IMG/VR virus record: IMGVR_UViG_3300034071_002938
Direction: 5' to 3' (one strand)
Origin: an uncultured virus (IMG/VR IMGVR_UViG_3300034071_002938)
Taxonomy: Duplodnaviria > Heunggongvirae > Uroviricota > Caudoviricetes
Length of the DNA: 64,000 nucleotides
The notes beneath the pieces are model-generated. The model was given only the letters and a program-made list of their open reading frames with translations. It ran no database searches and was not told where the DNA came from. A program made the position numbers and the translations under genes. Shown here piece by piece: positions 1,210 through 38,865 of this stretch. Numbering within the stretch: position 1 is the first letter of the stretch; each line of letters begins with the position of its first letter.

Positions 1210-1686
1210 ATGCCCTACAAATCAATCGTTGCAGATCTTCAAACCATCACGGACCGCCTCAATGGCGCCGTGATCTTTGGCCCATTCCCGAACAATGGCA
1301 TTCCTGCTGGCGGGCTCACCATCAGCTTCACCGCTCCTGCCGCGACAGTGACCTTCTCAGGCTCAGCCGGAGACATGCTCACGATTACCGAAGTCGTGGA
1401 TCAACTGAGAACACAGTTGAACGCAGCTGGTGTGGCTCGGGTCTCTAAGCGATCCCTGCATAACCAGGGAAATGGGATCACGACGGATAATGCTGGTGGT
1501 CCGGCCAACGCAATGGTGTCTATCGTAATCACCGCAACGGAAGTGGTTATCGAACCAGGGGGCACTGCTGACTCCCTGTTCGGCATTGCAGGCACAATCA
1601 ACGCGAATGAGGTGGATCCCGCGAAGATCTATGGGTTCTCTCAGGGCACTCATCCTGGTTACTTCGTCATCCTGATCGGAGAATGA
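1210..1686 (+). CDS. Virion structural protein (beta-rich, resembles segments of the sheath insertion domains)
   Basis: GAGGAG SD; TVTF..G..LTITEVVDQL and GGTADSLFG patterns resemble segments within the sheath ORF. Confidence 0.45.
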   Translation: MPYKSIVADLQTITDRLNGAVIFGPFPNNGIPAGGLTISFTAPAATVTFSGSAGDMLTITEVVDQLRTQLNAAGVARVSKRSLHNQGNGITTDNAGGPANAMVSIVITATEVVIEPGGTADSLFGIAGTINANEVDPAKIYGFSQGTHPGYFVILIGE

Positions 1687-3311
1687 ACATGGAAGGCTTT
1701 AATCGCACCGACGCACTGGTCTTCGTTCATGCTCTCCGCAAGATTGCGGCCGGACCTGACGCAGACTTCGTAAACCGCGCAGAGAAGGTTGAGACTGGCG
1801 AGGCATCTACGCCAGATGAGGCCATGCAGCGCACTCTTGCCGGATCACCCGATCCTACACAGCGATATGAGGGCGACTACGCAGTCCCGCCTGAACAGGT
1901 CGTTCCTGTTCTCGGGCAGATCGTGGCGAACAGTCAGCGCCAGCACCTTGCCTACTCCTTCTACGCCGAGATGATTCGCGGCGCAGGACGCGGCGATCTT
2001 GCTGACCTGTTCGAAGAGCAGGGAGCCGGTGAACTCAAGGAGATGTCCTACTTCCTCCGCCGCCTGTCTATCCTGGCTCCTGGGGGCGCTCCTATTCCGG
2101 TTGCCCCCACCCCAGAGCCTACGAACGACATCGGTAAGGCCCTGAACTACCTCATTGCGGGAGAGCAGCAAGCGCTGGTTCTTTTCAAGAGCCTACACTC
2201 GATGCTTGGTGACAACCCCATGAAGTACATGATCGAGCAGATCATGACGGATGCTCAGGGTCACCACGACAAGCTCGTTCAGAACCTCCCGGCAGCAAGC
2301 CCGAAGTCCAAGGTGGCTTCTGTGCTCGCCAAACTCAGCAACAAGGTTCCCGTTGGGGCTCCGGGCACAGAGCCTGCGGAGGTCGTTGCGCAGCGCGAAG
2401 CAGTCCTTCAGCAGCAACAGCTTGTCGGGGAGAATCAGGCTCTTCGTGCTCAGCTCGATCAAGCCGGTCAGGTTGCAGTGGGGCAACAGCAGCAGCTCGA
2501 GAGCCTTGGCGCCGAGAATCAGAACCTTCAGGCTCAAGCCCAGATTGCTGGAGATCAGGCGCACGCGGCTACAGAACAGGCTCAGCTCAATGCCGAGCAA
2601 GCCGCAGCACAGGCCGATGCCAAGATGCGTCTGGCTATCCGCATTCAGCAGTTCCGTCAGACTCTTGCTGATACCGTCGCTGCTGACCCAGTTCAGGAAG
2701 AGGGCGTTGGGTTTGGCGAGCAGGCCGGTCCCGGAACCATCCAGACCTCGAGTCAACAGAATGCAGCTGCCCAGGAAGCCGCTGCAATGGACCCTACAGG
2801 CGGCGTAGGGGCTGCGCCCACCCAGACGGCGGCCAAACAGCAACAGGAGGCCGCAGGAGCCCAGCAGGAGGCCAAGAAGCAGACGGCACAGGCCCAGCAA
2901 GCCACGAAGCAGGCAAACATGGAGTCTGGATCGATTGGCAACAACAAGGCAATGAAAAGGAAGATCGATAAGCTTGTTGGTGCTCTGGCTGCGGCCAAGA
3001 ACCATCAGACATCGACTCCTGCTGGGCGTCTCGCACTGGGCATCGGTGGAACCGCTGTGGTCGGAACGCTGCTTCACAAGGCACTCAAGAAGGAGCGCGC
3101 CAAGTCAGCTGGTGACTACACCGAGGGCCTCCGTCTGATGGCAAAGGCGAAGAAGGCTGGAGTTCAGACCGTTGGTCAAGTCGACAATGGTGATCCCGAG
3201 AACCCGCGTCTCCCGCTCGCAGGCATGGGGACTGAGGTTGATAGGCGCAACCCCCGTCTGGCTCCGGCTGAGACTCACAAGCAGCACATCAATCTAGCCA
3301 AGAAGGTCTGA
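1683..3311 (+). CDS. Putative virion protein with ferritin-like four-helix domain and Gln/Ala-rich coiled coil
   Basis: aa ~72-200 follow the bacterioferritin/Dps pattern (LAY..YA.M..G.G..DLADLFEEQ...E......RRL..L ... E..AL ... GD....MIEQI..D...H.DKL); ATGA overlap with upstream gene. Confidence 0.65.
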   Translation: MNMEGFNRTDALVFVHALRKIAAGPDADFVNRAEKVETGEASTPDEAMQRTLAGSPDPTQRYEGDYAVPPEQVVPVLGQIVANSQRQHLAYSFYAEMIRGAGRGDLADLFEEQGAGELKEMSYFLRRLSILAPGGAPIPVAPTPEPTNDIGKALNYLIAGEQQALVLFKSLHSMLGDNPMKYMIEQIMTDAQGHHDKLVQNLPAASPKSKVASVLAKLSNKVPVGAPGTEPAEVVAQREAVLQQQQLVGENQALRAQLDQAGQVAVGQQQQLESLGAENQNLQAQAQIAGDQAHAATEQAQLNAEQAAAQADAKMRLAIRIQQFRQTLADTVAADPVQEEGVGFGEQAGPGTIQTSSQQNAAAQEAAAMDPTGGVGAAPTQTAAKQQQEAAGAQQEAKKQTAQAQQATKQANMESGSIGNNKAMKRKIDKLVGALAAAKNHQTSTPAGRLALGIGGTAVVGTLLHKALKKERAKSAGDYTEGLRLMAKAKKAGVQTVGQVDNGDPENPRLPLAGMGTEVDRRNPRLAPAETHKQHINLAKKV

Positions 3312-6905: not shown

Positions 6906-9900
6906 ATGGCGACTAGCCCCACGATTGAGAGGCCTGGAGTACAGGTCATTCAGCAGTTCCGTACTGCAAGCCCGACGATCCTCATCCCGACTCTGCCTGC
7001 ATGTATCGTTGGTCCATGCAATCAGATCATCGAGGCTGTGCAGGACGACGGGAGCCTGAACCCCGCGGCACGTATTGCGCTTCCTGCGCGTTTCGCCTTT
7101 GCCTACGTCTCGAGCCCGTTCGAGTACACAAGCGTCGGCACCAACACACTCGAGCTGAGCGTCAACAACGCTGCGGCAGAACAGGTCGTGTTTGGAACAG
7201 GACCCAACCTCACGGTCGATCAGGTTGTCGATGCCATTCTCACGGCAGAGATTCCTGGCCTGACCGCTGTCGTGGAGGAGAGCGGAACGCAGAAGCGTGT
7301 TGTTGTCTACACCACAAGCTCGGGAGAGAATGCGAGCCTTGAGGTCGGAACAGGCACAAGCTCGCCCTGCCTCACGGCGTTTGGGATCACAAAGGGGCTT
7401 CGTAGCACCGGTTCTTCGGGCTACATGAACTTCATTGATCTCAAGATGGGTATTGGTGACTATCCCGATCCACGATCGAACATCGACCTGGTCGTTGTTG
7501 ACTACGACACAGTTCGCGCATTCATGAACGACGGGAGCGGCAAGATCCGAGAGGTTCTTCGCACCGAGTCGTTCCTCGAGGGCGCCACTTCTGCTGTCAC
7601 GGTTCAGGACGACGGCGACGGGGACAACCTCAGCCCGTACCTCAACTTCTCGGGCGGCGTCTTCCACACCAAGCCTGCAACGCTACTTGGAAGCGTTGAC
7701 TGGTCTGGGCTTTCGTACCCAGCGGCTTTTGGTACATCCACACTCGAGTTGATCGTCAACGGAGTCACTGTGGTGGTGACCTTTGCCAACCCCGGCAATG
7801 CCACCGCAGCTGCTCTTGCAGTCAACACGGCGCTTGGTGTGAACGGCACGTGCGTTATCAGCGGCGGATTCCCGCTTCTGACTTCGGCGCTTTCAGGCGT
7901 TAGCTCGAGCATCGAGATTGGTGCCGCGGGTACGATCAACGAGGCGACCATCGGTCTTGTCGTTGGACGCTACGCAGCGGGCAAGCCTGCTCGTGCCCGT
8001 GCACAGGGCAACGCCGACCTCACGGCCATCACCTATGCCACATCTGTGCAGGGACGAGTTCTCCGCATGAGTGTGGGTGGCGGTGAGTACCAGCAGCTGG
8101 TCTTCGGTACTGGAGTTGCTTCGGCGGCAAACGTCATCACGGCGATCAATGAACTCTGGGGGTCCGTCTCCAGCCTCAACGGGGCGAACAACCTCGTTCT
8201 TCGTGCGGCCGATAACTTCGGTGGTGCTGAGTCGGAGATTCGCATTGACAAGAACGCTTCTGACTCGACGCTCCTCACGGCTCTTGGGCTGATCGGTGCT
8301 GGTGCACCCTTCAACTCTACGAGTGTGGTGTTCGGCGGTGCCTTCGCCCCACGTGTTGGTGATGAGGTCTGGGCCAACGGTGTTCGCCTCGGTCAGATCA
8401 CCGAAGTCCCTGCCACGCCGGACAACCGTCTTCGCATCAGCGTTGAGCAGCTGCTTTCATACTCGGCTTCGAGCTGGACGATCATCGCGAAGGGCTTGGA
8501 CAACCAGGCTGCGACGCTCTCCCGCCCGTCCTCGGACCTCATCGTGGACACGACGAGCGGCTCGGTGAGGATCAAGCACGGCATCTTCCGCGAGACAGGT
8601 GGCACTCCCACGGCAGCAGGGCCGCTCGGCACCTACCTGGCCTACAACGGTCTTCGTCAAGACGTCAGCCCTGCAAACGAGAGCTTCAATCTGCTTTCGT
8701 ATGGTACGACCACCGATCTCGAAGCCGACCTCTCCCCGATCGATCCGCAGAACCCGCTTGGTTTCGGCATCTACTTCGCTCTGCTCAATGCCCCCGGTGT
8801 TGAGGTCAGCGGTGCTGGTGTCGGTGAAGCGACGACTGGGGAGCCTGAGGGCAGCCTTGATGCCTACATCCAGGCGTTCGAGTTCCTCGAGAGCAAGAAC
8901 GTCTACGCCATCGCCCCGATGACGCATGCCGACGCAGTCGGTCAGGCGCTTCAGGTGCACGTCAACGAGCTGAGCAAGCCGGAGAACGGCCTCGAGCGCA
9001 TTGCAGTGCTCAACCCCAAGCGCCCAACCCGCAAGTCAGACACACTCGTCGCGTCCGTCTCTACGGCGAACGTGGCCGGTGCTCCGACCGACGTGATTGG
9101 AAGCGGGCTGGCTGATCTTCAGGCCAAGCTTGCTGCACTTGGCAAGGCTGGACCGACGTACACGATCACTGACGGTGTGTTCGTGGTGTTCGAAGATGAT
9201 CAGAACCGCTATCTCGTTGAGAGCATCAGCGGCCCCTCGATCACCATCAACAACGGCCCTCTCACGCAGACCGATGCGTTCTTCCTCGACGGTGGTGGTT
9301 CGGCCGTCTTTGCGGATGCAATCGTCGACCGACCAATGACCGTGTTCATCCGCGGCGGAAGCCTTGGCAACCGTACGGATGAGGCAGCGGCCTACGCAGA
9401 CCTTGCACGCAGCTACGCAGATCGCCGAGTCATCGTCACGGCGCCTGATGCAGCTCGAGCGTCTGTTGACGGTCTCGAGACCGGCATTGAGGGTTACTAC
9501 CTCTCTGCGGCACTGGCGGGCGTGTTCTCGTCGGTTGGTCCGAGCAAGCCACTCACTGAGGAAAGCCTGGCCGGGTTCAAGGGCGTCACTGGTTCGTCAG
9601 ACCGGTACTCCGAACTCCAGCTTCGCATGATGAGTGGTGGAGGCCTCTGGGTCTTCTACGCTGAGTCGGATCAGTCGGTGGTTCGCACGCGCCACCAACT
9701 GACGTCGGATGTCAGCACGATCGAAAAGCGAGAAAGCAGCATCACAAGGGCTGTTGATTTCTCGGCCATCTTCCTTCGCACTGGCCTCAAGAACTTCATT
9801 GGCCGGTTCAACATCACCACGACGGTTCAGGATGCAGTCAGCCTTGTTCTCGACGGTCTTTCGACCTTCCTGATCAAGAACGGAGTCCTGAAGTCCTTCG

Positions 9901-10010
9901 CGGTCAACGCGGTCCGTCAGTCGGCGAGCGCACCAGACACGCTCGAGATTGATGTGACTCTCGAGGTCCTCTACCCACTCAACTACATCAAGATCACTCT
10001 CGTGATCTGA
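6906..10010 (+). CDS. Tail sheath protein (contractile tail), ~1034 aa with large insertion domains
   Basis: AAGGAG SD; N-terminal RPGVQV; C-terminal sheath core (Y..AFE.LE, ERIAV, YLSAALAG, RHQLT...E.SI.RAVDF, YPLNYIKITL). Confidence 0.85.
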   Translation: MATSPTIERPGVQVIQQFRTASPTILIPTLPACIVGPCNQIIEAVQDDGSLNPAARIALPARFAFAYVSSPFEYTSVGTNTLELSVNNAAAEQVVFGTGPNLTVDQVVDAILTAEIPGLTAVVEESGTQKRVVVYTTSSGENASLEVGTGTSSPCLTAFGITKGLRSTGSSGYMNFIDLKMGIGDYPDPRSNIDLVVVDYDTVRAFMNDGSGKIREVLRTESFLEGATSAVTVQDDGDGDNLSPYLNFSGGVFHTKPATLLGSVDWSGLSYPAAFGTSTLELIVNGVTVVVTFANPGNATAAALAVNTALGVNGTCVISGGFPLLTSALSGVSSSIEIGAAGTINEATIGLVVGRYAAGKPARARAQGNADLTAITYATSVQGRVLRMSVGGGEYQQLVFGTGVASAANVITAINELWGSVSSLNGANNLVLRAADNFGGAESEIRIDKNASDSTLLTALGLIGAGAPFNSTSVVFGGAFAPRVGDEVWANGVRLGQITEVPATPDNRLRISVEQLLSYSASSWTIIAKGLDNQAATLSRPSSDLIVDTTSGSVRIKHGIFRETGGTPTAAGPLGTYLAYNGLRQDVSPANESFNLLSYGTTTDLEADLSPIDPQNPLGFGIYFALLNAPGVEVSGAGVGEATTGEPEGSLDAYIQAFEFLESKNVYAIAPMTHADAVGQALQVHVNELSKPENGLERIAVLNPKRPTRKSDTLVASVSTANVAGAPTDVIGSGLADLQAKLAALGKAGPTYTITDGVFVVFEDDQNRYLVESISGPSITINNGPLTQTDAFFLDGGGSAVFADAIVDRPMTVFIRGGSLGNRTDEAAAYADLARSYADRRVIVTAPDAARASVDGLETGIEGYYLSAALAGVFSSVGPSKPLTEESLAGFKGVTGSSDRYSELQLRMMSGGGLWVFYAESDQSVVRTRHQLTSDVSTIEKRESSITRAVDFSAIFLRTGLKNFIGRFNITTTVQDAVSLVLDGLSTFLIKNGVLKSFAVNAVRQSASAPDTLEIDVTLEVLYPLNYIKITLVI

Positions 10011-12614: not shown

Positions 12615-13069
12615 TGACTCAGTCAGTAGAAGAACTCAGAATCCCGGGATGCCACCGGTTCACCTTTCAGGGCGCCCTCTCTGGACTACCTCCAGGAGCC
12701 TCCGCCGTTGGCACTGCTACACCGGGTGACGGAGGGACAGTTGGTGTGATCGGTGTGATGCACATGATGGTGGGCATGTGCTTGGCAGATCTTCGGCTTC
12801 ATCGGGTAGTTCCTGGGACCGGTGCTGGCATTACCTCAACCACGGTGCAGTTCCATCGCGTCCGCGCCGGTGCCTGGCAGGAGCTTGGTACATTGTCGAT
12901 CAAATCAGCAGTGGCCTTCGATACTGCTACCGTCAGTATTCCGGGTTCCGTTAGCCTACTTCCGAACCCAATAGCCCTTTTGCTGAAGGGGGACCTTATC
13001 GTCGTCCGGCTTGTTGACGCCGAGCAGGGAACCCCAGCAAACATCACCGCCACAGTGGAGACACGATGA
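12614..13069 (+). CDS. Hypothetical beta-rich structural protein
   Basis: TAATG coupling with upstream gene; L..GD.I.V motif. Confidence 0.5.
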   Translation: MTQSVEELRIPGCHRFTFQGALSGLPPGASAVGTATPGDGGTVGVIGVMHMMVGMCLADLRLHRVVPGTGAGITSTTVQFHRVRAGAWQELGTLSIKSAVAFDTATVSIPGSVSLLPNPIALLLKGDLIVVRLVDAEQGTPANITATVETR

Positions 13070-14568
13070 CCCGCAAGTTGCACGGCCGAATGAAGCTCTA
13101 TGGCTTCGAGATCAGCATCGAGAATGCCAAGGGGACTACGCGCAAGTGGTATGATCCACACGGCAAGGAGTCCGGCAGCACCTACATGCACTGTGACTAC
13201 GGTTACATCCGAGGGACTGAGGGCACGGATGGCGATCATGTTGACGTCTACATCGGTCCTCATCACGACAGTGATCGTGCTTTCGTCATCGATCAGATGA
13301 AGAAGCCCGGATTCACCGAGTTCGATGAGCAGAAGGTGATGCTTGCCTTCCGAACTGCGGAAGAGGCGAAGAAGGCCTATCTGCGCCAGTACAACGACAA
13401 GCGCTTCTTCGGAAGCATGAAGGAGATGTCCATGGATGAGTTCAAGCAGAAAGTCCTGGATCGTAAGAATAGGGGCAAAAAAGTGGCTGGCTTTGTTGCC
13501 CTGAACTTGGCTCGCGGACTCAACGACCTCATCCTTCCGCATCACATCAAGTCCGCGCAGATCATGGGAAGCCCTGGTGGCGTAGACGCCGTCCCTCCAC
13601 AAACCGGCTACGGCAACGCAGTCACAACGAAAGCTGATCGTATTGAAGCTTCGCAGGAAGTGAAGGTTGCAGGTGGAGATCGAGTCGGTGCTATCTCAGA
13701 CCGAATCGATGATGCCGGTATTGGCTTGCTCGCAGCTCCGTATCTTGCACAGGCTGGGGGCAAGGTACTGGCGAAGTTCAAGAACCCGAAGCTTCAGGCA
13801 GCTGGTGCTGGGCTCAGCAACTTCGGGCGGCACATCGAGCATAGCCACGGGCGCGAGATCGCAGGTCTCGCCATGGTTGCTCCTGGTGTGACCCACGCTG
13901 TGGCGCGGGGGATCGACAAGGCGATGCCCTCGAAGAAGCTCGAGAAGGTTGCAGAGAAGCTGTTCCCCGACTTCGAGTACAAAACGGAGCAAGAGAAAAC
14001 TGCGATCCTCGCTGGTCTTGGTCGGCTGGCCGGAGACCTCGTTCATGCCGGAAGTCAGCTTCGCCCTATGGCTGCTCAGGTTGTGTCTCGTGCTGGAGGC
14101 ATGAAGAGTCAGATCAGTCCTATGGCTGCGAAGCTTGTTGACGGGGCAAAGGGCAGACTCCAAGGAGCGGTGAGCGGGGCGCAGAATGCAGTGTCCCGCC
14201 AACTCGCTGGTGCCAAGGATAGCTACAACCTCGCTAAGGCTGGGCTCCCACCTACACGAGTCCCAACCCCACAACCCAAAGTGACAGCATCAGTAACGGC
14301 TCCGATATCCCATGCCCACCCCGGACATACCCCCGCACCAGCGCTCTCTGCCAATGCCCCAGTGGTACCGGCCGCGGCCCCCGCGACGAAGTCGAAGTGG
14401 AACCCAGCGACCGCCAAGAACCTTGCTCTTGGCGCCGGGGCAGTTGGTGTTGGCGGAGCTGCCTACGGCGGCTACAAAGGCATCCAGACGACAGCATCCA
14501 TGCTACAGAACCACCACGAGGCACCTCTTGTCCCGCCAGGGTTCGTTGGGGCTGGCAGGGTGTTTTAG
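13066..14568 (+). CDS. InPase (inorganic-pyrophosphatase-like) domain protein with Gly/Ala-rich C-terminal region
   Basis: ISIEN.KG..R...DYGYIRGT.G.DGDHVDVYIGP...FVIDQ...FDE.KVML.F...EEAK.AYL..Y matches the InPase domain of phage/plasmid polyvalent proteins. Confidence 0.8.
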   Translation: MTRKLHGRMKLYGFEISIENAKGTTRKWYDPHGKESGSTYMHCDYGYIRGTEGTDGDHVDVYIGPHHDSDRAFVIDQMKKPGFTEFDEQKVMLAFRTAEEAKKAYLRQYNDKRFFGSMKEMSMDEFKQKVLDRKNRGKKVAGFVALNLARGLNDLILPHHIKSAQIMGSPGGVDAVPPQTGYGNAVTTKADRIEASQEVKVAGGDRVGAISDRIDDAGIGLLAAPYLAQAGGKVLAKFKNPKLQAAGAGLSNFGRHIEHSHGREIAGLAMVAPGVTHAVARGIDKAMPSKKLEKVAEKLFPDFEYKTEQEKTAILAGLGRLAGDLVHAGSQLRPMAAQVVSRAGGMKSQISPMAAKLVDGAKGRLQGAVSGAQNAVSRQLAGAKDSYNLAKAGLPPTRVPTPQPKVTASVTAPISHAHPGHTPAPALSANAPVVPAAAPATKSKWNPATAKNLALGAGAVGVGGAAYGGYKGIQTTASMLQNHHEAPLVPPGFVGAGRVF

Positions 14569-14572
14569 TCCC

Positions 14573-14618
14573 GGTGGAGGAGAGAGACCCAGCACGATTA
14601 GGGTCTCTCTCCTCCATC
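14573..14618. terminator. Long hairpin between convergent operons (probable bidirectional terminator)
   Basis: GGTGGAGGAGAGAGACCC-N10-GGGTCTCTCTCCTCCATC, 18-bp stem; weak U-tracts. Confidence 0.6.
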
Positions 14619-14620
14619 TC

Positions 14621-14998
14621 CTATCGACACTGCCCACCTAGCCTTAGTGCTCTAACGAGCCTACTCGCGATCTTGGGGCCGGGGCTTCGCTGCTTGCTGT
14701 ACGGACTTGATTCCCACAGGGCTGGGCCATACACAGCTATCGCTGTCAGGAAGGCATCCGTTTTCCGCCCGCTACCAACAAGGTAGTAGCTCTGCACGCC
14801 GTTATACGCCATCTCTTCAACGAAGATCAGGTCGTCGCCTTCAGCAGAGTAATCATCAGCGTAACCGGCCGAGGAAGACATCCCATACGATCTCTTTCTC
14901 TTTCTATACGCCTCATCGATCTCTTTGCCTAGTTTCATCGGCAAGTTGCCTTCGAGCAGGTGGTAGGTCTGGATCTGTATTGGCACGAACTTATCCAC
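14621..14998 (-). CDS. FxP-motif array protein 10
   Basis: GTG start; MDKFVPIQIQTYHLL. Confidence 0.7.
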   Translation of the reverse strand: MDKFVPIQIQTYHLLEGNLPMKLGKEIDEAYRKRKRSYGMSSSAGYADDYSAEGDDLIFVEEMAYNGVQSYYLVGSGRKTDAFLTAIAVYGPALWESSPYSKQRSPGPKIASRLVRALRLGGQCR

Positions 14999-15296
14999 GC
15001 GATCCCTCCCGCGCCATCCATCTCAGCTTCCTGTGAAACCGATCGACCAGCTTCTCGATGCTATCTATCCTGTAGAAAACAGGACCCATAGCCTTTGGTT
15101 CATAGTCCGAGACTGCCTCCATGAACTTAACGGCTCGTGGGCAGCTCGGCAGGAAATGGGTTTCAGGCCAAGATGTCTTCCTGTTGAGTACGATAGGGAT
15201 CAGGTAGTTGCCCTGATCCATCTCGATGAATACTTTCGTGGGAAGATCACTACTCAGTAGGTGCTGAGCTTGCACGGAGGCAGGGACGAACTTCAT
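14991..15296 (-). CDS. FxP-motif array protein 9
   Basis: MKFVPASVQAQHLL; overlaps next gene by 8 nt. Confidence 0.7.
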   Translation of the reverse strand: MKFVPASVQAQHLLSSDLPTKVFIEMDQGNYLIPIVLNRKTSWPETHFLPSCPRAVKFMEAVSDYEPKAMGPVFYRIDSIEKLVDRFHRKLRWMAREGSRG

Positions 15297-15651
15297 GGCA
15301 CGATCTCTTTATTCGATAGTTGAGTACGGTCGCCTGAACGCCCCTGTTGATGTTCTCCGACATGCTTGTGTGCAGGACGTTTTCGTAGATCTCGGGATAG
15401 TAGAGACTGACTGCATTCAAGAAAGCATGCGACCAAGCATCGCACGTGAGCAGCCAAGCTCGAGGCAAGTCACCTGTTCGTCGACTGTCTATGGCATCTA
15501 CGATCACAGCCAGGCCACTGCGAGGAATGGTGTAGTTGCGATCGACTGCGACTATTCTCTGTGCCGTTCTCAGCTCGCTATCGAGTCGTGAGGGCAGGCT
15601 TGCGTCCAGGAGGTAGGTTGCCTGCACGTGGCTGGGGACAAACGCGCTCAT
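15250..15651 (-). CDS. FxP-motif array protein 8
   Basis: MSAFVPSHVQATYLL; ATGA overlap with upstream gene. Confidence 0.7.
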   Translation of the reverse strand: MSAFVPSHVQATYLLDASLPSRLDSELRTAQRIVAVDRNYTIPRSGLAVIVDAIDSRRTGDLPRAWLLTCDAWSHAFLNAVSLYYPEIYENVLHTSMSENINRGVQATVLNYRIKRSCHEVRPCLRASSAPTE

Positions 15652-15965
15652 AGTGGCCACCGCAACCTCGGCAGAATAATCGGGTCGTTAAGGACCGAAC
15701 AATAGCTCTGTAGATAACCGCTAACCCACATGCGATCTACTCCAGTGCGATCCCACACCAACTGTTGATCCGTGTAGGATAGATCTGTGTCGCAGAACTC
15801 ACCAAGAACGACAAGGACGGGGTGGGGTCGCACCGATCCCCGTTTTTCCCTCAACGAATGTGCTGCGCCAAAGAATCTCTGGTCAAGGAGTCGGTTAGCA
15901 TGATCCAGAAGCTTCGTCCTGACGATCTGGTCTGCCTGTATGATTTGCGGGACAAAGCTATGCAT
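15648..15965 (-). CDS. FxP-motif array protein 7
   Basis: MHSFVPQIIQADQI. Confidence 0.7.
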   Translation of the reverse strand: MHSFVPQIIQADQIVRTKLLDHANRLLDQRFFGAAHSLREKRGSVRPHPVLVVLGEFCDTDLSYTDQQLVWDRTGVDRMWVSGYLQSYCSVLNDPIILPRLRWPL

Positions 15966-16173
15966 AGCGTTCCATCACCAATCTGAGTTGGGTGTTTGGG
16001 CGAGACGACTCAGGAACGAGTGCATTCAAGACAAGAGCGAACAGCCTGGGTCCTGGCTTCCTCTGTTCTTCGGGAATGGACAGGAATCTGTTGAAGTCTT
16101 CGCGGATCGCGCTTATCGCACAACTCTCACGCATCTGTTCACGCTGGATCTCGATCGGAATGAACCTATCCAT
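15958..16173 (-). CDS. FxP-motif array protein 6
   Basis: AAAGGAGG SD; MDRFIPIEIQREQM. Confidence 0.7.
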   Translation of the reverse strand: MDRFIPIEIQREQMRESCAISAIREDFNRFLSIPEEQRKPGPRLFALVLNALVPESSRPNTQLRLVMERYA

Positions 16174-16184
16174 CAATCCTCCTT

Positions 16185-16604
16185 TCAACCGGCGTCCCAA
16201 TCATCGCCATGATCATCATGTGAGTAGTTGCTCTGCTTCCAAGCATCTGAGATCAGAATCCAGTGAGACACTGCCGAGTTACGGGGCCATGGCCATGGCG
16301 ACGCTGTTTTGGGGTCCATGCTGCGGAGATGGACATCGCAGATATGGGTGGGGTTGAAGAACTGTCTGTTAGATCGGGGAACGGTCATTGTCGCTGGTAG
16401 AAGCTTCATTGACGGAGCCTGCGAGTCCAGTCCGCGCAGATCATAACTTCGTAGGAAATCATCAGCGAGCCCGAACGAATATATGCCGTCGTGGCCGCTA
16501 GCTTCAAAACAAGCCCAGCGGGGCATGCTCTCAAAGGCAAACTGGGCAAGGTTGATCTTTTTGAAGTGCTTGCGTGTTATTTCGTGGGGACAGAATGTTC
16601 GCAT
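16185..16604 (-). CDS. FxP-motif array protein 5
   Basis: MRTFCPHEITRKHF. Confidence 0.65.
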   Translation of the reverse strand: MRTFCPHEITRKHFKKINLAQFAFESMPRWACFEASGHDGIYSFGLADDFLRSYDLRGLDSQAPSMKLLPATMTVPRSNRQFFNPTHICDVHLRSMDPKTASPWPWPRNSAVSHWILISDAWKQSNYSHDDHGDDWDAG

Positions 16605-16786
16605 AGGTGATCGCTCATCTTGCCAATCAGCTCAGTAAGCATCAACCCGAAGAGGTATTGGCGTAGATCTTCCGGGTACTCTGAGAGGAAATACTCCAGA
16701 GGATCATGTTGGGTAGGATTCTTCCAGCCCGCGCGTGCTTGTCGCAGATAGTCTATCTGGACAGCCCCCGGGCAGAACCTATTCAA
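16577..16786 (-). CDS. FxP-motif array protein 4
   Basis: Probable TTG start overlapping the upstream stop; (M)NRFCPGAVQIDYL; start uncertain. Confidence 0.6.
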   Translation of the reverse strand: MNRFCPGAVQIDYLRQARAGWKNPTQHDPLEYFLSEYPEDLRQYLFGLMLTELIGKMSDHLCEHSVPTK

Positions 16787-17234
16787 GCGGCTTCGGCGTG
16801 TAGTAGTGCTCAACCATTTCCACAGTCATTAGGTCGTAAATGTACGGGGCCAGATTCATCGGATAGACAGCGAACCGCGTCGAGGCGTTAAGCGAGGTAC
16901 GATCGAACAGATCAATCTTCCGCATGTAACGACCCTGTTCATTCCAAGGATTGAACGTCTTCGGAATGAAGTAGGTATCATAGATCTCCAACGCGTTCTG
17001 TGTCCGATTCCTATGTATTCCGAGAAAAGGATCGATCATGAAAGCAAGAATGAACACGTCTAGTGGATCGTAGTATGAGGACCTCTCCTCAGATTCCAGG
17101 ATGCCCGCCTGACCATCAGCTCGCCAGATGAGTCGCTGAGTTCGTTGAAACTCTTCCTCCTCGATCAGCAGCGTCTTCAGCCGATCTACCTGGTTGAGGT
17201 ACTCGGCTTGCACAGTTTGTGGATGAAAGATCAT
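16779..17234 (-). CDS. FxP-motif array protein 3
   Basis: MIFHPQTVQAEYLNQVDRL; extended similarity to 17231-17650. Confidence 0.7.
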   Translation of the reverse strand: MIFHPQTVQAEYLNQVDRLKTLLIEEEEFQRTQRLIWRADGQAGILESEERSSYYDPLDVFILAFMIDPFLGIHRNRTQNALEIYDTYFIPKTFNPWNEQGRYMRKIDLFDRTSLNASTRFAVYPMNLAPYIYDLMTVEMVEHYYTPKPLE

Positions 17235-17650
17235 ATTGCCTTAGCCAGACGATAGTACATGCGGACATCTTCTCCTTGGAGAGGCAGCTCGGTCCAGGGA
17301 TAGTCATAGGAGAGCACAGGGTCTGGAGCCCTGTAGGTGTGACCACACCGCCGTAGATAGGCGCCCTGCTCACTCCAGGGGTTGAAGTCCGGGATGCTCC
17401 GGTACTCGTCATAGATCGCGCTAACTTCGCTATCTCTTCGGTGAGCCTCTTGTGAAGGCCTCAGTAGGTGTAACTCGAGATAGGGATCTAGGTGCGACCG
17501 GAGCAGCAGCGCCTCCATAGAGCCAGCGTTTCGCAGCCTCAGGTACTCACGCTCATTCTCTAGCATCAGATTAAGGCGATCTGCCTTATTCAGATACTCG
17601 GCCTGAATGCCGTGTGGATGAAATACTTCAGAGACGATCGCCGAGTTCAA
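17231..17650 (-). CDS. FxP-motif array protein 2
   Basis: VFHPHGIQAEYLNKADRL; shares IYD.Y....FNPW.EQG.Y.R with its neighbour. Confidence 0.7.
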   Translation of the reverse strand: MNSAIVSEVFHPHGIQAEYLNKADRLNLMLENEREYLRLRNAGSMEALLLRSHLDPYLELHLLRPSQEAHRRDSEVSAIYDEYRSIPDFNPWSEQGAYLRRCGHTYRAPDPVLSYDYPWTELPLQGEDVRMYYRLAKAI

Positions 17651-17924
17651 GGCGGTACTCCTTGATCACCAACGTGACCTGGACGTAGAAGTAGTCGGAC
17701 ATAGTCATCTTAGATCCGCGACGAGGTCGCAGGACAAGCGGTTCATATGTCCCACGCAGCTGCTCTAGCGCATCCAAGAACCCCGGGTAGATCAGTTGCC
17801 TAGCAGCAGTGGCGCGCCGGTGGTTATCCATGATGAGACCGATCTCCTCCAGTGGTCTAAGACGCTCCCGCTGTACATCTCGAGGACAGAATCTAGGTAT
17901 CGTTGGGGTAGGCGATGTCTGCAT
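17628..17924 (-). CDS. FxP-motif array protein 1
   Basis: IPRFCPRDVQRERL. Confidence 0.65.
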   Translation of the reverse strand: MQTSPTPTIPRFCPRDVQRERLRPLEEIGLIMDNHRRATAARQLIYPGFLDALEQLRGTYEPLVLRPRRGSKMTMSDYFYVQVTLVIKEYRLELGDRL

Positions 17925-18318
17925 ATAGAGATCTCAGTATCTTGCCTGGCGCGCGCTCGATGGCTCTTAGGAAAGAGTTGATGCCGCTTCGGTACATCGC
18001 GTACTTCTTCACACGACTAACGATCTCCACGTATCCGAGGTCCTTGTTGACACAGGCAATCGCCCACTCGTCCATTCCCAGCATGTTCTCAGATGGGTTC
18101 TTGGTCTTCGTCTTGATCCAAGTGGAGCGGTCCATCAGCTCGAAGGCTTCTTGGACGCTGAGCCGCCTAACGATGCGAAAGCATTCGTAGTCGCGGACGA
18201 AAGTCCCGTGAGGGGAGAACCTTTGTACCTCGGGGTGTATAAGATCAAAAGCAAAAAGAGGAGCGCACTCGCACTCCTCTTTTGAACACCCGCATGTGTC
18301 GCAGGCTCCGTAGGCCAT
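17893..18318 (-). CDS. Hypothetical protein with N-terminal Cys cluster (CDTCGC...CEC)
   Basis: TAATG coupling at 18316-18320. Confidence 0.55.
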   Translation of the reverse strand: MAYGACDTCGCSKEECECAPLFAFDLIHPEVQRFSPHGTFVRDYECFRIVRRLSVQEAFELMDRSTWIKTKTKNPSENMLGMDEWAIACVNKDLGYVEIVSRVKKYAMYRSGINSFLRAIERAPGKILRSLYADIAYPNDT

Positions 18319-18623
18319 TACGCCTGGAACCCTGTGTGGCCGAAGAGACGGCGCGCACGCGACTCCACGAGGAGCTTCAGACACTCTGCGTTGTCGATCT
18401 CCGCTTCGTATGCCGCGAGGCATCCGCGCATCAGGATCTCACCCGGGAAGGGCCCCAAGGACCCATTCTCGATGCGGACCTTCAATGCGTTCCCCTGGCG
18501 GGACAGCTCGTGGAGCTTCATCAGGCTGGCGGTGTAGACGTCAAGCGTCTCATTCAGGTCGTTGTCGTTGAGCGCGCGAAGTTTGTTGATCTCGGACAGT
18601 CTCTGGTTCAGAAGTTCATTCAT
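18318..18623 (-). CDS. Hypothetical helical protein, first gene after a CTATAAG motif
   Basis: GCTATAAG-N6-GGAGG-N5-ATG. Confidence 0.65.
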   Translation of the reverse strand: MNELLNQRLSEINKLRALNDNDLNETLDVYTASLMKLHELSRQGNALKVRIENGSLGPFPGEILMRGCLAAYEAEIDNAECLKLLVESRARRLFGHTGFQA

Positions 18624-18638
18624 TGGATCCTCCACTAG

Positions 18639-18646
18639 CTTATAGC
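18639..18646 (-). promoter_or_regulatory. CCTATAAG-family putative phage promoter (GCTATAAG variant) upstream of the FxP array operon
   Basis: Same motif-SD-ATG geometry as 12 other copies. Confidence 0.5.
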
Positions 18647-18649
18647 CGA

Positions 18650-19090
18650 TCAGACCAGTGTTTTGTCATCGGGGTGCTGCTTCTCGAAGACAAGCTCCTC
18701 AGTCTCCTGTGGCTTGCTCCCGTCCTCCAGCACAGTCTCGTCTTCCTCGGGCTTGGGTGGTGGCTTCTTTACCTTCTTCGGGCGAGACACCTCCATGAAG
18801 GATAAAAGGAGGGCATTCTTCTCTTCATCGGTAGCACCCTCCTTCTTGTCGATCAGTTCTTGCGCGATCTCTTTTTGCCTGGGTGAGTAATGGTCTGGTC
18901 TGAGCTGCGTGTCTCGGAGCAACTCTCGCGGATCCGTCATGTATAGATCCAACAGATTCGAGGGCCGACTAGGCTTGGTGTCGGCCACCGCAGCGAACGT
19001 TCCCGAGTAGGTTTCGAACGACTTTGCAAACTCCTCAGGAGGAGATGCTATGAGGGTGTGCAAGGCATCGTAGTGCTTATGTCGGGTCAT
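18650..19090 (-). CDS. Hypothetical protein
   Basis: ATGA-coupled 146-aa ORF. Confidence 0.6.
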   Translation of the reverse strand: MTRHKHYDALHTLIASPPEEFAKSFETYSGTFAAVADTKPSRPSNLLDLYMTDPRELLRDTQLRPDHYSPRQKEIAQELIDKKEGATDEEKNALLLSFMEVSRPKKVKKPPPKPEEDETVLEDGSKPQETEELVFEKQHPDDKTLV

Positions 19091-19734
19091 GATTCAGCGT
19101 ACTTCTCCAGTGCCTCTTCGGGCAACGCTAGAAACTCAACACAGTCGTGCTCGTCCCAGTAACTTGCCTTGGCAAGCCAGGACTGGCCGCTGTGCCCAGA
19201 TACCCAGTCATCGTATCCAATCCCAGTCTGCTCGAGGATATGCTCGATCGCATAGTAGTACAGCATTGCCTCTACCGGGAGGATGCCCAGCCTGTCGATC
19301 TCTGTGGACTTGTAGTCTCGAAGAACACCTATCGCGGCCGCGGCACCAACACTGAGTCCGGGATCTTTGATTCGGTGAAGATGAATGCGTGCATGCGCGT
19401 ATGTCGCAATCTGGACTCGGCCAGCTCGCATGAATCCCTTGACGTCTTTCCCGTTCAGGAACTTTGCCATCCACGTATCCCGGCTCATCAGGTTGTGTCG
19501 ATTCAAGAAGAGATCGAAGCACATTCGCGCTTTCCTTTTGTCGTCATCGCTCCGAGGATCGAAGACCTTCGCCATGATGTCTGCGGGCTCGAGGCGAGAC
19601 CACATACCGATGCTTCTAGCCCAGCGGGCGCTGAGGGCCCTTTTGTGCCCGGTGTGGTGAATCCTGTCAGCCGGATCAAGCCCTCGGATCTTCAAGTCTT
19701 TAGACGAGCACATCAACCAGTCCCACCATTTCAT
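19087..19734 (-). CDS. Hypothetical protein
   Basis: ATGA-coupled 215-aa ORF. Confidence 0.6.
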   Translation of the reverse strand: MKWWDWLMCSSKDLKIRGLDPADRIHHTGHKRALSARWARSIGMWSRLEPADIMAKVFDPRSDDDKRKARMCFDLFLNRHNLMSRDTWMAKFLNGKDVKGFMRAGRVQIATYAHARIHLHRIKDPGLSVGAAAAIGVLRDYKSTEIDRLGILPVEAMLYYYAIEHILEQTGIGYDDWVSGHSGQSWLAKASYWDEHDCVEFLALPEEALEKYAES

Positions 19735-20396
19735 TTCTTCTCCGATCTACAACGCAAGCTACAGAACTGACCGTAGGAAGGATCACACTCTCGGCCGCAT
19801 GACTTACAAGCAACGCCCACACGACTTAGATGAGCTGCCTCCACTGCGATAGCCATCTCCGCATCGCGGAGACGAAGCCCAACTGCCTTGGCTATTGTGT
19901 CTGCGGACATGCCAAGCTGAGAATGAAGAAAATGAAGCGCACGTGTGAGCTGATCGTAGTCGAGTGGAAGACGAAGGACGTATTCCGGAAGGTCCCACTG
20001 TCCTTTGACCACACTCTCTGTTCTCTGGATGTCAGAGACATAGCCCGTACCGAACGGATCGATGGCCCACACCTCTATCTCTCGACGCCTCTCATGCCCT
20101 CTCTTCCTCTTGATGCCCCTTTCCTTCCGCCACTCCAAGACAGCGGTCAGGCTAACGTTGGCGGCTCGCGCAAGCGAGTCGTCTGGCATACCTGCGTCTG
20201 CCTCAGCTCTAAACCCATCCAGGTCTCTGAACGACTCCTCGTGGGTTTTGGCTCGAGTGGGTCGTTGCTTCTTCGGTGGGGTACGTGGTGGTGGCTTCAG
20301 GAAGTCAGCCATCACGGCCTTCTTTCCAACCTTCTTCTCCGCCTCAGCCACGATGCTATCCAGTGAGTCGAGTAGGTGACTCGGGATTGTTGTCAT
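19731..20396 (-). CDS. Putative DNA-binding protein (two HTH-like segments, C-terminal CxxC..FCSxxC zinc motif)
   Basis: PDDSLARAANVSLTAVLEWRKERGI; MSADTIAKAVGL; CKSCG...FCSLRC. Confidence 0.55.
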   Translation of the reverse strand: MTTIPSHLLDSLDSIVAEAEKKVGKKAVMADFLKPPPRTPPKKQRPTRAKTHEESFRDLDGFRAEADAGMPDDSLARAANVSLTAVLEWRKERGIKRKRGHERRREIEVWAIDPFGTGYVSDIQRTESVVKGQWDLPEYVLRLPLDYDQLTRALHFLHSQLGMSADTIAKAVGLRLRDAEMAIAVEAAHLSRVGVACKSCGRECDPSYGQFCSLRCRSEKK

Positions 20397-20439
20397 ACAC
20401 CCTCTTTTGGAATCCAGTACTGACGAGATATCTGTATTG

Positions 20440-27775: not shown

Positions 27776-28137
27776 GGGCATGACAGGTTTCGACAGAGCT
27801 ATGAATCACGTGTTGCGAGTAGAGGTTGATCGGCTGGCCTCTTAAAAAGCCGATCACACGTAGCTGCGAACGAAAGCAACTACGCTCACGCCGCGCAAGC
27901 AGCCTGAGCCGTTTGGTGAGATAGTGCGGCGGATCTCACCGGGCGTCATTTAGCCGAGGCAGTCTTACACAGGGCATCCAGTGGGTAAGATCAAGGTATA
28001 TCTGGAAGCTGGTGGAGGGGTTGTCGGAACCCCCAAACCGGGATTCATCTCCAAGGGTCGGTTACCCAATAGATGATAGGCTCGTAGACGCACGTGTGGA
28101 TCGGTTCTGGACCCGGGTTCGATTCCCGGCATGTCCA
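27776..28137 (+). ncRNA. ssrA: tmRNA (one-piece); tag reading frame (A)ANESNYAHAAQAA at 27866-27907
   Basis: 5' GGGCATG..GGTTTCGAC pairs with 3' CATGTCC-A including a G3.U70 wobble; T-arm CCGGGTTCGATTCCCGG; PK1-like region then TAGCT-GCG resume context; tag ends in AA-stop. Confidence 0.93.
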
Positions 28138-28176
28138 TCTAGATAACAGGAAGGAGGCGTTATGTAACCCCCGTCC

Positions 28177-33329: not shown

Positions 33330-34370
33330 ATGAAAAACATCATGATCTTGTCGATCCTACTGGTTGGCTGTGGTGAGCAGACGTTCTTCACTGACGCCGG
33401 ATATTCGGCGGACGTGGTGATCACACCGGACGCAGGCGCTGTCGATGCGCCCTACCAAAACGATGCGGGCGTACCAGACGCACCGATCTATCCGGATGCC
33501 TGGATGGCCCTACCCGACTCCGGCGTTGATGCATTCGCCGCAGCGCCTGATGCCTATGTGGCTATCCCGGATGCGCAAGCTCCGGATGCGTTCGTTACGC
33601 CTGACGCCGCAGCAGCGGACTCAGGCCCTCGACGTCCTCGAGGCCGCCCTGTTGACATCACGGGTAACGCCTGTGGTCTCGATGAGGATGGCGCTTTTTG
33701 GTGCTGGGAAACCGGCATCACGGTGTGGTTCGGCGACGGGTTCGATAGTGCCTCGGGCTCATGCGCGTTGCGTGGATCTGAGGTCTGGTGTGCTGACACC
33801 AGCACAACAACCATGCGTGCCGTCACAGATGGTGCTCCGCTACGCCTAGATAGCATCGCAGAGTATAGCGATCGTGCCTTTGGTTGCGGGGTTGGAGCCG
33901 CAGGTGTTCTGTGTTGGACCAACGGCGTGGTCACCGTACGTGACGGCAGCGGTGCGAACTCGGTCGGGGTGATGGCGCCTGGTGCTCGTGATTGGGCATT
34001 GGCTCGCCGACCAGCCCTTCCCCTTTACTTCTCGACGGTCAATACACAGCTCTTCGATATCAACCCTACTGGGGTTTGCCGGACAGATCTTGGCAGCCCG
34101 CGTACGAACTGTACGAGGTATGGCGGATCAGGGGCCACCTATCTCGGGCTTGCTGCTCCAAACAGCATCCTCGGTTTCGGGCAGCTCTGCACACCGAGTA
34201 GCAGCGAAGTGGGCTGCTTCGGTGGCTTCACCTTCTCAGCTCCGGGCCTGATCGACTCAGCGATCTTCGGAAGTGTTGTGGGCGGCCGAAGCACCTGGGG
34301 CGTGTGCGTCAGCGGTACAGACCTGCGCTGCTATGACTCGGACGGGACCTACCGAGTCATCCCTTGGTGA
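33330..34370 (+). CDS. Lipoprotein with PDA/DAG linker repeats and Cys-paired RCC1-like/beta-propeller domain
   Basis: Signal peptide with lipobox LVG-C; repeated PDA/DAG; AC.L...G..WCW, CAL....V.C and FGC.V...GV.CW repeats; own CCTATAAG leader. Confidence 0.7.
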   Translation: MKNIMILSILLVGCGEQTFFTDAGYSADVVITPDAGAVDAPYQNDAGVPDAPIYPDAWMALPDSGVDAFAAAPDAYVAIPDAQAPDAFVTPDAAAADSGPRRPRGRPVDITGNACGLDEDGAFWCWETGITVWFGDGFDSASGSCALRGSEVWCADTSTTTMRAVTDGAPLRLDSIAEYSDRAFGCGVGAAGVLCWTNGVVTVRDGSGANSVGVMAPGARDWALARRPALPLYFSTVNTQLFDINPTGVCRTDLGSPRTNCTRYGGSGATYLGLAAPNSILGFGQLCTPSSSEVGCFGGFTFSAPGLIDSAIFGSVVGGRSTWGVCVSGTDLRCYDSDGTYRVIPW

Positions 34371-37168: not shown

Positions 37169-37933
37169 ATGAAAGTCAGGCACGACTACAAGTCCGAGAA
37201 AGAGCTTTGCGACGTTCTGATCAACCATGCACGGAGCCATGGTTGGTTGGTATTTCCCGAGACCTCGGAGTTTGATCTTTTGCTGGTCGCTACGAACGAG
37301 GTTCGAGCAGTGCATGCGCGACCCGGGGATCAGATTGGCGTGCATGCAAAGATGCACCCCAACGTAGACGTCCTGGGTCAGGCGTTACCCTCGGCTCATT
37401 CAGAGCGCGGACCCCATTACCACGCAGTTCTGGTACCTGTTGCTACGCAAGAGTTCAAGGCCATCGCCGGTAGATGCCAGATCATGGTCATAGAGGGTGG
37501 GCGCCTAGAGCATCGCGGTAGGCGGTTTGTGCGAGATGTCTCTACGTCGCTCAACTACATGCCAGTCAACAAGAAGATTCCGTACAGCGAGCCACTCTGG
37601 CATCCTGACGTAGAGATCAATACGCCTGCCGGTGTTAGAAGCCCCAAGAAGATCACGCCATGGAAGGTATCTGCCGTACGTCTGTGTCTTCATGGACTCA
37701 AGGAAGGTTATCTCATCAACTCCGACTTCCGCGCAGCTGGAGTGTCGATGGCACTGTGGAGACAGTCCAACTGGGTCATCTCGACGGGACAGAAGATCGG
37801 TAAGTCGTTGAAGTACATTATCAACGAAGCTGCGACACCGCCTCATCTGAAGTGGCCTGAGATAGCTGCCATTTTGAAGGAGGATGAGTATGGAGGCCGT
37901 TCGACAGATCAAAGAAAGCGCTTGGGGTACTAG
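37169..37933 (+). CDS. PD-(D/E)xK-like nuclease-fold protein, possibly inactive
   Basis: SE.EL...GW.VFPE...FDLL.V...IGVHAK..N..V..QA; expected ExK appears as HxK. Confidence 0.5.
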   Translation: MKVRHDYKSEKELCDVLINHARSHGWLVFPETSEFDLLLVATNEVRAVHARPGDQIGVHAKMHPNVDVLGQALPSAHSERGPHYHAVLVPVATQEFKAIAGRCQIMVIEGGRLEHRGRRFVRDVSTSLNYMPVNKKIPYSEPLWHPDVEINTPAGVRSPKKITPWKVSAVRLCLHGLKEGYLINSDFRAAGVSMALWRQSNWVISTGQKIGKSLKYIINEAATPPHLKWPEIAAILKEDEYGGRSTDQRKRLGY

Positions 37934-38258
37934 GTTCTGTCCAAGTGAGGTGGGGATCTCCTACGTACTCCAGGTGCTGCGACGGGACCTTGATTGGCGG
38001 CCAGCAGTCCTGGAGTTGCTCTACTACCGCCTCCTAGGAAGGATCCCTTACCGGCGTGCTGAGAACACCGTAGATCGGGAGCGCGGCATGTGGGCGCGAA
38101 TCCATATGCCGTTACTGGTTGTAGACGAGCTAGCAGCAAAGATAGAAGTGGCTTACGTGCTGATCTATCTTTCTCAGATGGGAACTATCGATGAAGTTTT
38201 GTCCATTCGAGATACATGCGGAACGGTTCTACCCGCTTCTCCGCCATCAGATCAATAA
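37884..38258 (+). CDS. FxP-motif-like protein (RFCPSEV)
   Basis: N-proximal TRFCPSEVGISYV. Confidence 0.5.
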   Translation: MSMEAVRQIKESAWGTRFCPSEVGISYVLQVLRRDLDWRPAVLELLYYRLLGRIPYRRAENTVDRERGMWARIHMPLLVVDELAAKIEVAYVLIYLSQMGTIDEVLSIRDTCGTVLPASPPSDQ

Positions 38259-38865
38259 CGCGGGAGGGATGACCAAGTGGTACGCCGCCTGCTCTGCGGA
38301 TATCCACACACTCACCGACAAGCAGATTACTTCTTGGATAGCTCAGCTTGCTGGGATGGATCAGGGGTTCACCAAGAACAAGACCAAGTTTGAGAAGGCA
38401 AAGAGTCTTCTGTCTGATGCGAGGATAGATCGCGGCGATTTGGTGACCACAAAACCCCGTGCAGCAAAGGGATGGGGCTACCACAACTGGCCCTACTATT
38501 CAGCAGCCCTCCTAGTCATGATACAAGAGGCTAGGAGGTTGCCACCTATGAAATGCATGTCGTGTTCTGTAACCCTTGCCGGACCGAGTCAGATCTTCGG
38601 TACTCTTCTTGTCTGTACGTCTTGCAAGGCGTTGGCGGAGGAAGCTCGCACCAATATCTTCGCCAAGATCGATGAGGCGAAGAAGTCCGCTCTTTCCTGG
38701 CTCGAGGATTACATTCTTCGGGGTGGCCTCCTGAAAGGATCAGATGGACTCAACGGATCAGGACTACCGGTTCACGTTCTCTCTACGCTGCAAGGGCTGC
38801 AAAGCCACAAGGCAGCTGAAGATACCAGCGATACCGCTAGCGGTAGGAAGCACCCTACCGACTAG
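38191..38865 (+). CDS. FxP-motif-like protein with internal CxxC..CxxC domain
   Basis: MKFCPFEIHAERF; in-frame AGGAGG-ATG at 38548 may start a second product. Confidence 0.55.
   Translation: MKFCPFEIHAERFYPLLRHQINNAGGMTKWYAACSADIHTLTDKQITSWIAQLAGMDQGFTKNKTKFEKAKSLLSDARIDRGDLVTTKPRAAKGWGYHNWPYYSAALLVMIQEARRLPPMKCMSCSVTLAGPSQIFGTLLVCTSCKALAEEARTNIFAKIDEAKKSALSWLEDYILRGGLLKGSDGLNGSGLPVHVLSTLQGLQSHKAAEDTSDTASGRKHPTD

Follow-up and report, generated by a model that had tools for sequence, protein, structure and literature searches.

A run of ten minus-strand genes (g1 to g10, positions 14621-17924) in a 64,000-nucleotide sequence from an uncultured tailed virus, IMG/VR record IMGVR_UViG_3300034071_002938 (the whole analysed stretch is called the window here), encodes small proteins that begin with the element F-x-P-x-x-[IV]-Q-x-[ED]-[YH]-L. 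Selection preserves this 12-13-residue element while the remaining sequence diverges beyond recognition. The reading that we tentatively favour is that the element serves as a conserved helix for binding, carried by accessory proteins that diverge fast and are not part of the virion; these may all engage one common partner in the infected cell and direct their bodies against host targets. Most small genes of large phages are without a known role, and in this phage a single short element singles out an entire accessory family. New relative to a preliminary description of the array are the copy numbers in related phages, motif copies inside array proteins, the conservation of a gene at a second locus (x2) in three relatives, and a pattern of whole-gene duplication followed by divergence.

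A short element conserved across ten diverged proteins

The ten minus-strand open reading frames (ORFs) of the preliminary description are all present at 14621-17924, with all ten of the N-terminal peptides it quoted (Table 1). The predicted proteins are 69-151 amino acids long, and a codon model scores the gene's own frame best in all ten cases; eight of the nine junctions are overlaps of 4-47 nucleotides, the remaining one being an 11-nucleotide gap. The array consists of real, coupled genes.

The strict pattern F[VICH]P..[IV]Q has nine matches in the six reading frames of the 64 kb, every one of them in the array, which agrees with the earlier count of a Gln in nine of ten genes; the tenth, g6, has Thr in its place. 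When the shorter F-x-P-x-x-[IV] is sought within the first 30 residues, 12 of the 389 window ORFs of at least 60 amino acids contain it: the ten array genes and two others at 37884-38258 and 38191-38865 (x1 and x2). Two further members thus lie outside the array as first described. A comparison with shuffled N-termini, which had been proposed as a check, gives a best shared spaced three-residue pattern in 9/10 array N-termini, as against at most 4/10 across 300 shuffles. Among 14 array members from the window and its relatives, Gln is found in 13, Asp or Glu at position 9 in ten and Tyr or His in 11, and the Phe and Pro, both of which anchored the alignment, in all 14. The bodies of the array proteins are 13-27% identical to g1, and the closest pair, g8 and g9, reaches 39%; both of the subfamilies recognised previously, g1-g3 and g8/g9, are borne out. 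A fixed polar residue, Gln, among bodies so diverged suggests a recognised surface.

All four Pro codons, both Phe codons and both Gln codons are in use in the motif, and the constraint therefore acts on the protein. This bears on the idea that the shared element acts at the DNA or RNA level, as a translation start or a recombination site, or that it reflects chance or an assembly artefact. The element does sit at gene starts, and DNA identity over the motif is 71-79% in two gene pairs; however, synonymous positions vary freely, the distance to the start codon varies, shuffled sequences never come near, and two other phages have the element at the same site. As to assembly, 44 contigs from four other lake-water runs (2020-2024) fall on window positions 13000-20400 with no difference or joint listed, in patchy cover such that no contig spans the whole stretch. 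This agreement argues against an assembly artefact and gives no sign of current variation, and where these contigs cover it the phage looks nearly clonal. We regard the nucleic acid, chance or artefact explanation as already largely refuted, and give it hardly any chance.

The array and a second motif locus in related phages

The window comes from the genome of a large, uncultured freshwater myophage and has its sheath gene at 6906-10010; the contig to which the searched protein collection assigns the array proteins is up to 180,808 bases long. Six relatives were compared: four near-complete genomes of 161-177 kb (G001, G003, G004 and G005), whose tube proteins are 76-86% identical to that of the window, and two informative metagenome loci (L013 and L014). 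Left out of the counts were genome G002, which shows no mismatch to G001 across 12,363 bases, and loci L015 and L016, both of which stop short of the array site. A similarity search of the genomes overlooked known members in G001 and G002, and the counts were therefore taken from our own profile scans.

Genes g13 and g15, which lie upstream of the array, are present in 6/6 relatives and mark the array site. The window has ten motif genes at this site, G001 three and G005 one; G003, G004, L013 and L014 have none. A profile built from the ten window motifs alone places three genes at the same site as the top three positions in G001 (172 kb), and with a 15-seed profile the single G005 gene, again at this site, is the top of ~296,000 positions. 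The profile scan of relatives suggested in the preliminary description thus ranks the syntenic genes first. An eight-row sheath tree groups the window with L014, G001 and G005 in one clade (99/99), within which G001 and G005 are sisters (92/97), so that array counts of 10, 0, 3 and 1 all occur within one clade. The varying copy number (10/3/1/0/0/0/0) identifies the array as dispensable accessory DNA; it is also what would be expected of serial duplication at a variable locus, as had been proposed together with the comparison of array content among relatives, in which copy number does differ at one site.

The family is apparently unnamed and clade-restricted, and the searches run brought up no relative outside the clade. 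Pfam, PHROGs and NCBIfam returned nothing meaningful for members of the array or for their relatives, none of 13 proteins matched a PADLOC defence profile at E≤0.05, and the best hit among PDB sequences had an E value of 0.42. A g8/g9 profile found itself only (2 of 68 candidates), a 13-row profile recovered itself plus a single G001 member (4 of 995), a profile of the G005/G001 family matched G001 and G005 only, and a search with the G005 protein matched no cultured phage. A 40-column profile run against 1.84 billion proteins returned 13 matches, consisting of its ten seeds and three repetitive proteins resembling translated repeats; such a profile is too short to lift a distant member, and absence is therefore not proven. 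Exact look-up recovered 8/10 array proteins from the collection, in clusters of 1-3 and without real variants. A degenerate DNA pattern searched against viral contigs gave 11 loci, of which one, in G001, is real and the other ten have the look of short frames that are not genes. A multi-term literature search returned no relevant description of such a family, which does not show its absence from print.

The element recurs in the overlapping genes x1 and x2. Orthologs of x2 in G001, G003, G005 and P0022 all start with F-x-P-F-[DE]; none was found in G004 by similarity search of genomes. The genes at the x1 position in G001 and G005 start with FDAEAIQIAHL and FSPEAIQIAYL, and the body of x1 has no detectable match to the bodies of these genes. 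An array-only profile scores six of nine x1/x2-type N-termini at p≤0.001. The bodies of x1 and x2 are separate conserved families of their own.

Some further features of this locus are worth recording. The x2 sequence and a CxxC..CxxC domain are fused in the window and in G003, and are separate neighbouring ORFs in G001 and G005 (x2 regions at window 38191-38865, L115 1513-2166, L008 18514-19387 and L147 14176-14869). The database gene calls P0020 and P0021 place the x2 start downstream of the conserved motif, and a protein atlas returned fungal, partly BTB-labelled clusters for P0022, as well as unnamed clusters for the array protein g3. A gene for an HD-domain protein (PF13328 in G005) lies directly before x1 in G001, G003 and G005 (L009 657-1211, L147 13246-13797 and L115 721-1281); the window is without it, and there the frame at 37169-37933 runs into x1.

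Internal motif copies, diverged bodies and the possible role of the element

Three array proteins, g6, g8 and g9, which are the three longest, carry a second, internal copy of the motif, in each case with F-N-P (Table 1); as a control, 0/5 neighbouring genes reach p<0.1 for an internal motif. The string FNPW.EQG.Y.R, noted in the preliminary description as a feature of the g8/g9 subfamily, is indeed present, but it is this second motif copy, and a second copy is also found in g6. The two motif copies are where g8 and g9 are most alike (9/13 and 7-8/13 identical); elsewhere identity is mostly 1-5/13. The internal copies probably arose by fusion of neighbouring genes, which is the simplest origin. 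As the motif is kept in mid-protein, a free N-terminus is not required.

The T-even tag is removed by the prohead protease; the conserved internal copies disfavour a cleavable packaging tag in the array proteins. A tag of this type, targeting the capsid or serving export, was one of the original suggestions; it would load diverse counter-defence proteins into the head for injection, and we now consider it quite improbable. The likeness lies in the architecture: the T-even internal proteins (IPI-III) are diverse small proteins that have only a short N-terminal targeting peptide in common (PMC3012670; 10.1101/2022.04.14.488369), and in the array, too, small and diverse proteins encoded at a variable locus begin with a constant peptide (compare PMC3012670), with the motif Phe at residue 3-4 in 8/10 and the virion block adjoining. 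Whereas the T-even peptide is confined to the N-terminus, the array motif also stands mid-protein in g6, g8 and g9, in three genes does not begin until residue 10, 12 or 18, and heads the conserved single-copy x2. The suggestion is further weakened by the array being encoded on the other strand from the virion genes and separated from them by a strong hairpin. A loose K-x-A pattern, a candidate for a head-protease site, occurs four times in the InPase-domain protein at the end of the virion block as against twice in the ten array proteins, in neither case beside the motif, which may also count against a tag. The genes alone give no sign of virion loading here. No sequence relation of the ten proteins to known internal proteins was detected by Pfam, PHROG or NCBIfam at a meaningful E value, a comparison that did not include direct alignment to the T4 tag.

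Almost complete divergence downstream of the motif, as first reported, holds in the window, where bodies are unalignable between subfamilies. In profile-profile comparisons, 4/5 pairs align over the first 9-19 columns only and the fifth gives nothing significant; hidden Markov models of subfamilies without the motif detect no other subfamily at a score that stands out from 554 control frames (best E 0.71). A universal second motif was sought in 13 selected bodies and scored 114.7, compared with 96.5-120 in 25 shuffles (2/25 higher) and with 230.5 when the motif was included. A C-terminal I-x-x-Y-x-L helix considered as a universal feature failed its tests and is limited to the G001/G005 subfamily. 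The G005 body has no match to the ten window bodies in local mode.

The three G001 proteins and the G005 copy are homologous along their length, and the bodies therefore need not be unrelated domains fused to a tag. Where the history is readable, whole genes appear to have been duplicated and then to have diverged, and whole-gene duplication followed by decay of similarity would explain the bodies equally well as domain fusion. The earlier proposal of a constant peptide fused to variable domains stands with regard to the constancy of the peptide and its selection at the protein level, and is qualified by this full-length homology.

The same homology past the motif favours the main alternative, in which the motif would supply the N-cap and the first core helix of a single small all-alpha domain, the array proteins being fast-evolving full-length paralogs with no common partner; we judge this somewhat unlikely, and the same holds for its corollaries that specificity would lie in the diverged surface and that two-motif proteins would be two domains. 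A structural model of a G001 member is consistent with it, being a small helical protein (predicted local distance difference test score, pLDDT, 76; predicted template modelling score, pTM, 0.55) with confident ends and a first helix that begins at the motif Pro; fold searches with this model gave nothing above background (best BFVD E 3.2, best PDB Z 4.1), and a model of g8 (pLDDT 39) was unusable. An excess of weak body matches, for example g1-g5, g7-g8 and g5-g7, and the position of the internal copies, which begin at residues 83-94 or about one small domain into the protein, point the same way. Such a core helix is harder to reconcile with the missing universal second motif, with profile alignments that end within the first 9-19 columns or fail, with the different conserved bodies of the x1 and x2 families, and with the fixed Gln, which would be unusual at a core position.

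Several observations weigh against the binding-helix reading that we prefer. Confidence in the G001 model is highest at both ends (pLDDT 80-87 and 86, versus 66-77 in the middle), which fits the motif as one packed helix of a small fold, and an aromatic-x-Pro before a helix is a common N-cap. With the motif removed, 12/105 pairs match at p<0.05 where ~5 are expected, including weak cross-subfamily links; the leading pairs are g8-g9, g1-g5, g1-g3 and g7-g8, together with one pair from G001. For the G005 body there is a match to each of the three bodies of G001 (p≤0.006) and, in global mode only, to g4 (p 0.001); the G001/G005 subfamily conserves its C-terminal I-x-x-Y-x-L helix along with the motif. 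The internal copies of g8 and g9 represent one event, not two, g1 has an internal score of nominal p 0.034 at a segment that is not motif-like, and the other three x1/x2-type N-termini are weak (p 0.015, 0.059 and 0.108).

The binding-helix reading would take the following form. The array is an accessory family belonging to a single clade of phages of 160-180 kb, and serial duplication of whole genes has expanded it here, in the interval from a conserved three-gene cassette to the point where the virion block ends. Its proteins would be made from one coupled leftward transcript and not be virion cargo. The element, Phe-x-Pro followed by a predicted helix with Val/Ile, the near-invariant Gln, an acidic residue and Tyr/His-Leu, would dock each protein on a common partner inside the infected cell. 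This partner may belong to the host machinery or be encoded by the phage, in the latter case serving the conserved x1/x2 pair as well. Acting in counter-defence or host takeover, the variable bodies could then make contact with host targets, or variants of them, that differ from one protein to the next, and the two-motif proteins would be bivalent.

Coupled genes imply co-expression, tandem fusions retain both copies of the motif, and x1 and x2 overlap and both have it, all of which would suit a motif helix that pairs with itself to form combinatorial homo- and heterodimers, with the two-motif proteins as fused dimers; with a single copy in G005 and none in four relatives, however, combinatorial pairing is not needed, and we find the proposal very improbable. 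An elaboration of the binding-helix reading, and clearly an unlikely one, is a portable 12-residue docking plug for one conserved receptor, used by x1/x2 in most clade members and by 0-10 swappable adaptors, some of them bivalent, that would redirect the receptor to host targets. Such a plug might be the bacterial-virus counterpart of the F-box principle, an analogy to which we attach as little likelihood. Eukaryotic and viral adaptor families such as the F-box proteins follow this logic, with a constant docking helix on variable bodies. The likeness is a loose one in the Pro-capped amphipathic helix, and the array is from a tailed phage; Gln is not known as an F-box feature, and no Pfam match to the F-box profile was found at E≤0.1 for the ten array proteins.

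Among phage systems, jumbo phages G and 121Q have tandem arrays of small genes that are read as tandem duplication (PMC5646251), and phage G has a ~35-copy zinc-ribbon expansion (PMC7824862). The resemblance is that small related genes of a large phage stand head to tail in a lineage-specific run; the arrays of G and 121Q are reported to have >30 very similar copies, whereas here there are ten, with 13-27% identity to g1, united by a 12-residue element. Tandem segmental amplification of a small accessory gene leads to counter-defence at T4 dmd-tifA (10.1101/2022.04.14.488369); those copies are identical and raise dosage, whereas the array would consist of old, diverged paralogs for which counter-defence is proposed only.

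If the helix is a docking site, one peptide pull-down would name the shared target, and a set of uncharacterised host-takeover or counter-defence proteins could be tested together; if it is only a structural helix, the locus would be a clear case of paralogs diverging past recognition. The related genomes give a natural series of 0, 1, 3 and 10 copies.

Gene context and other features of the phage

Table 1. Genes, motif copies and neighbouring elements of the array and of the second motif locus (window coordinates; aa, amino acids).
Feature	Position	Strand	Description
InPase-domain (PF18823) protein	13066..14568	+	last gene of plus-strand structural block, convergent with array; in all related loci
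perfect 16-bp inverted repeat	14575..14616		-37.7 kcal/mol, z -6.3, 0/200 shuffles
g1	14621..14998	-	125 aa, GTG start, FVPIQIQTYHL at residue 4, subfamily g1-g3
g2	14991..15296	-	101 aa, FVPASVQAQHL, subfamily g1-g3
g3	15250..15651	-	133 aa (GTG at 15660 adds 3 residues), FVPSHVQATYL, subfamily g1-g3
g4	15648..15965	-	105 aa, FVPQIIQADQI
g5	15958..16173	-	71 aa, FIPIEIQREQM, preceded by AGGAGG; body weakly linked to g1 and g7
g6	16185..16604	-	139 aa, FCPHEITRKHF and internal copy
g6 internal motif copy	16323..16358	-	residue 83, FNPTHICDVHLR, p 0.0065; in-frame ATG 10 codons upstream
g7	16577..16786	-	69 aa, TTG start, FCPGAVQIDYL; C-terminal part weakly like end of g8 (z 4.2)
g8	16779..17234	-	151 aa, FHPQTVQAEYL and internal copy
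g8 internal motif copy	16920..16955	-	residue 94, FNPWNEQGRYMR, p 0.0185
g9	17231..17650	-	139 aa, TTG start after AAGGAG, FHPHGIQAEYL at residue 10 and internal copy
g9 internal motif copy	17351..17386	-	residue 89, FNPWSEQGAYLR, p 0.0005
g10	17628..17924	-	98 aa, first array gene, FCPRDVQRERL at residue 12
g11 (Cys-rich), g12, g13, g14, g15 (weak helix-turn-helix, C-terminal Cys4)	17893..20396	-	upstream genes of the run, without motif
x1	37884..38258	+	124 aa, FCPSEVGISYV at residue 18
x2	38191..38865	+	224 aa, FCPFEIHAERF, fused to CxxC..CxxC domain

The inverted repeat between the convergent array and the InPase-domain gene is likely a transcript end. A scan for sigma-70 promoters was at chance level (3 found versus 4.5 expected), and no RNA data set was listed for the region. 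Just upstream of the array, within the 5' coding part of g11, a 13-pair terminator-like hairpin with a T-rich tail lies at 18254-18283 on the minus strand; it could tune array expression, although nine such sites were found where 5.3 are expected. The structural block also encodes a ferritin-like protein at 1683-3311 (Pfam E 1.4e-4).

The window sheath protein has remote matches only (26-34% over parts) to those of Vibrio, Rhodococcus and Mycobacterium phages, the tube protein is ~26% identical to the tubes of four cultured phages, and no relatives of the tube or of g15 were found in the genome contigs searched. A scan of 117 selected ORFs of G005 revealed a fused RNA polymerase of the phage's own as well as PolA, RecA, primase, helicase and gyrase B; the polymerase gene (L143 11735-16234) has Rpb2- and Rpb1-type domains in a single chain, of which the first 1500 residues were scanned. 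A transfer-messenger RNA (tmRNA) is encoded by the window at 27776-28140 on the plus strand (Rfam RF00023, 137 bits; tag ANESNYAHAAQAA), and G001 also has one (L009 16895-17281). As a clue to the host the NDK gene is uninformative, its best matches (40-49%) being spread over many phyla. The plus-strand gene at 33330-34370 encodes a lipoprotein-like protein with PDA/DA repeats that is without a match in the family libraries and is 37% conserved in G001; it is reminiscent of myxobacterial lipoproteins, a possible hint as to the host.

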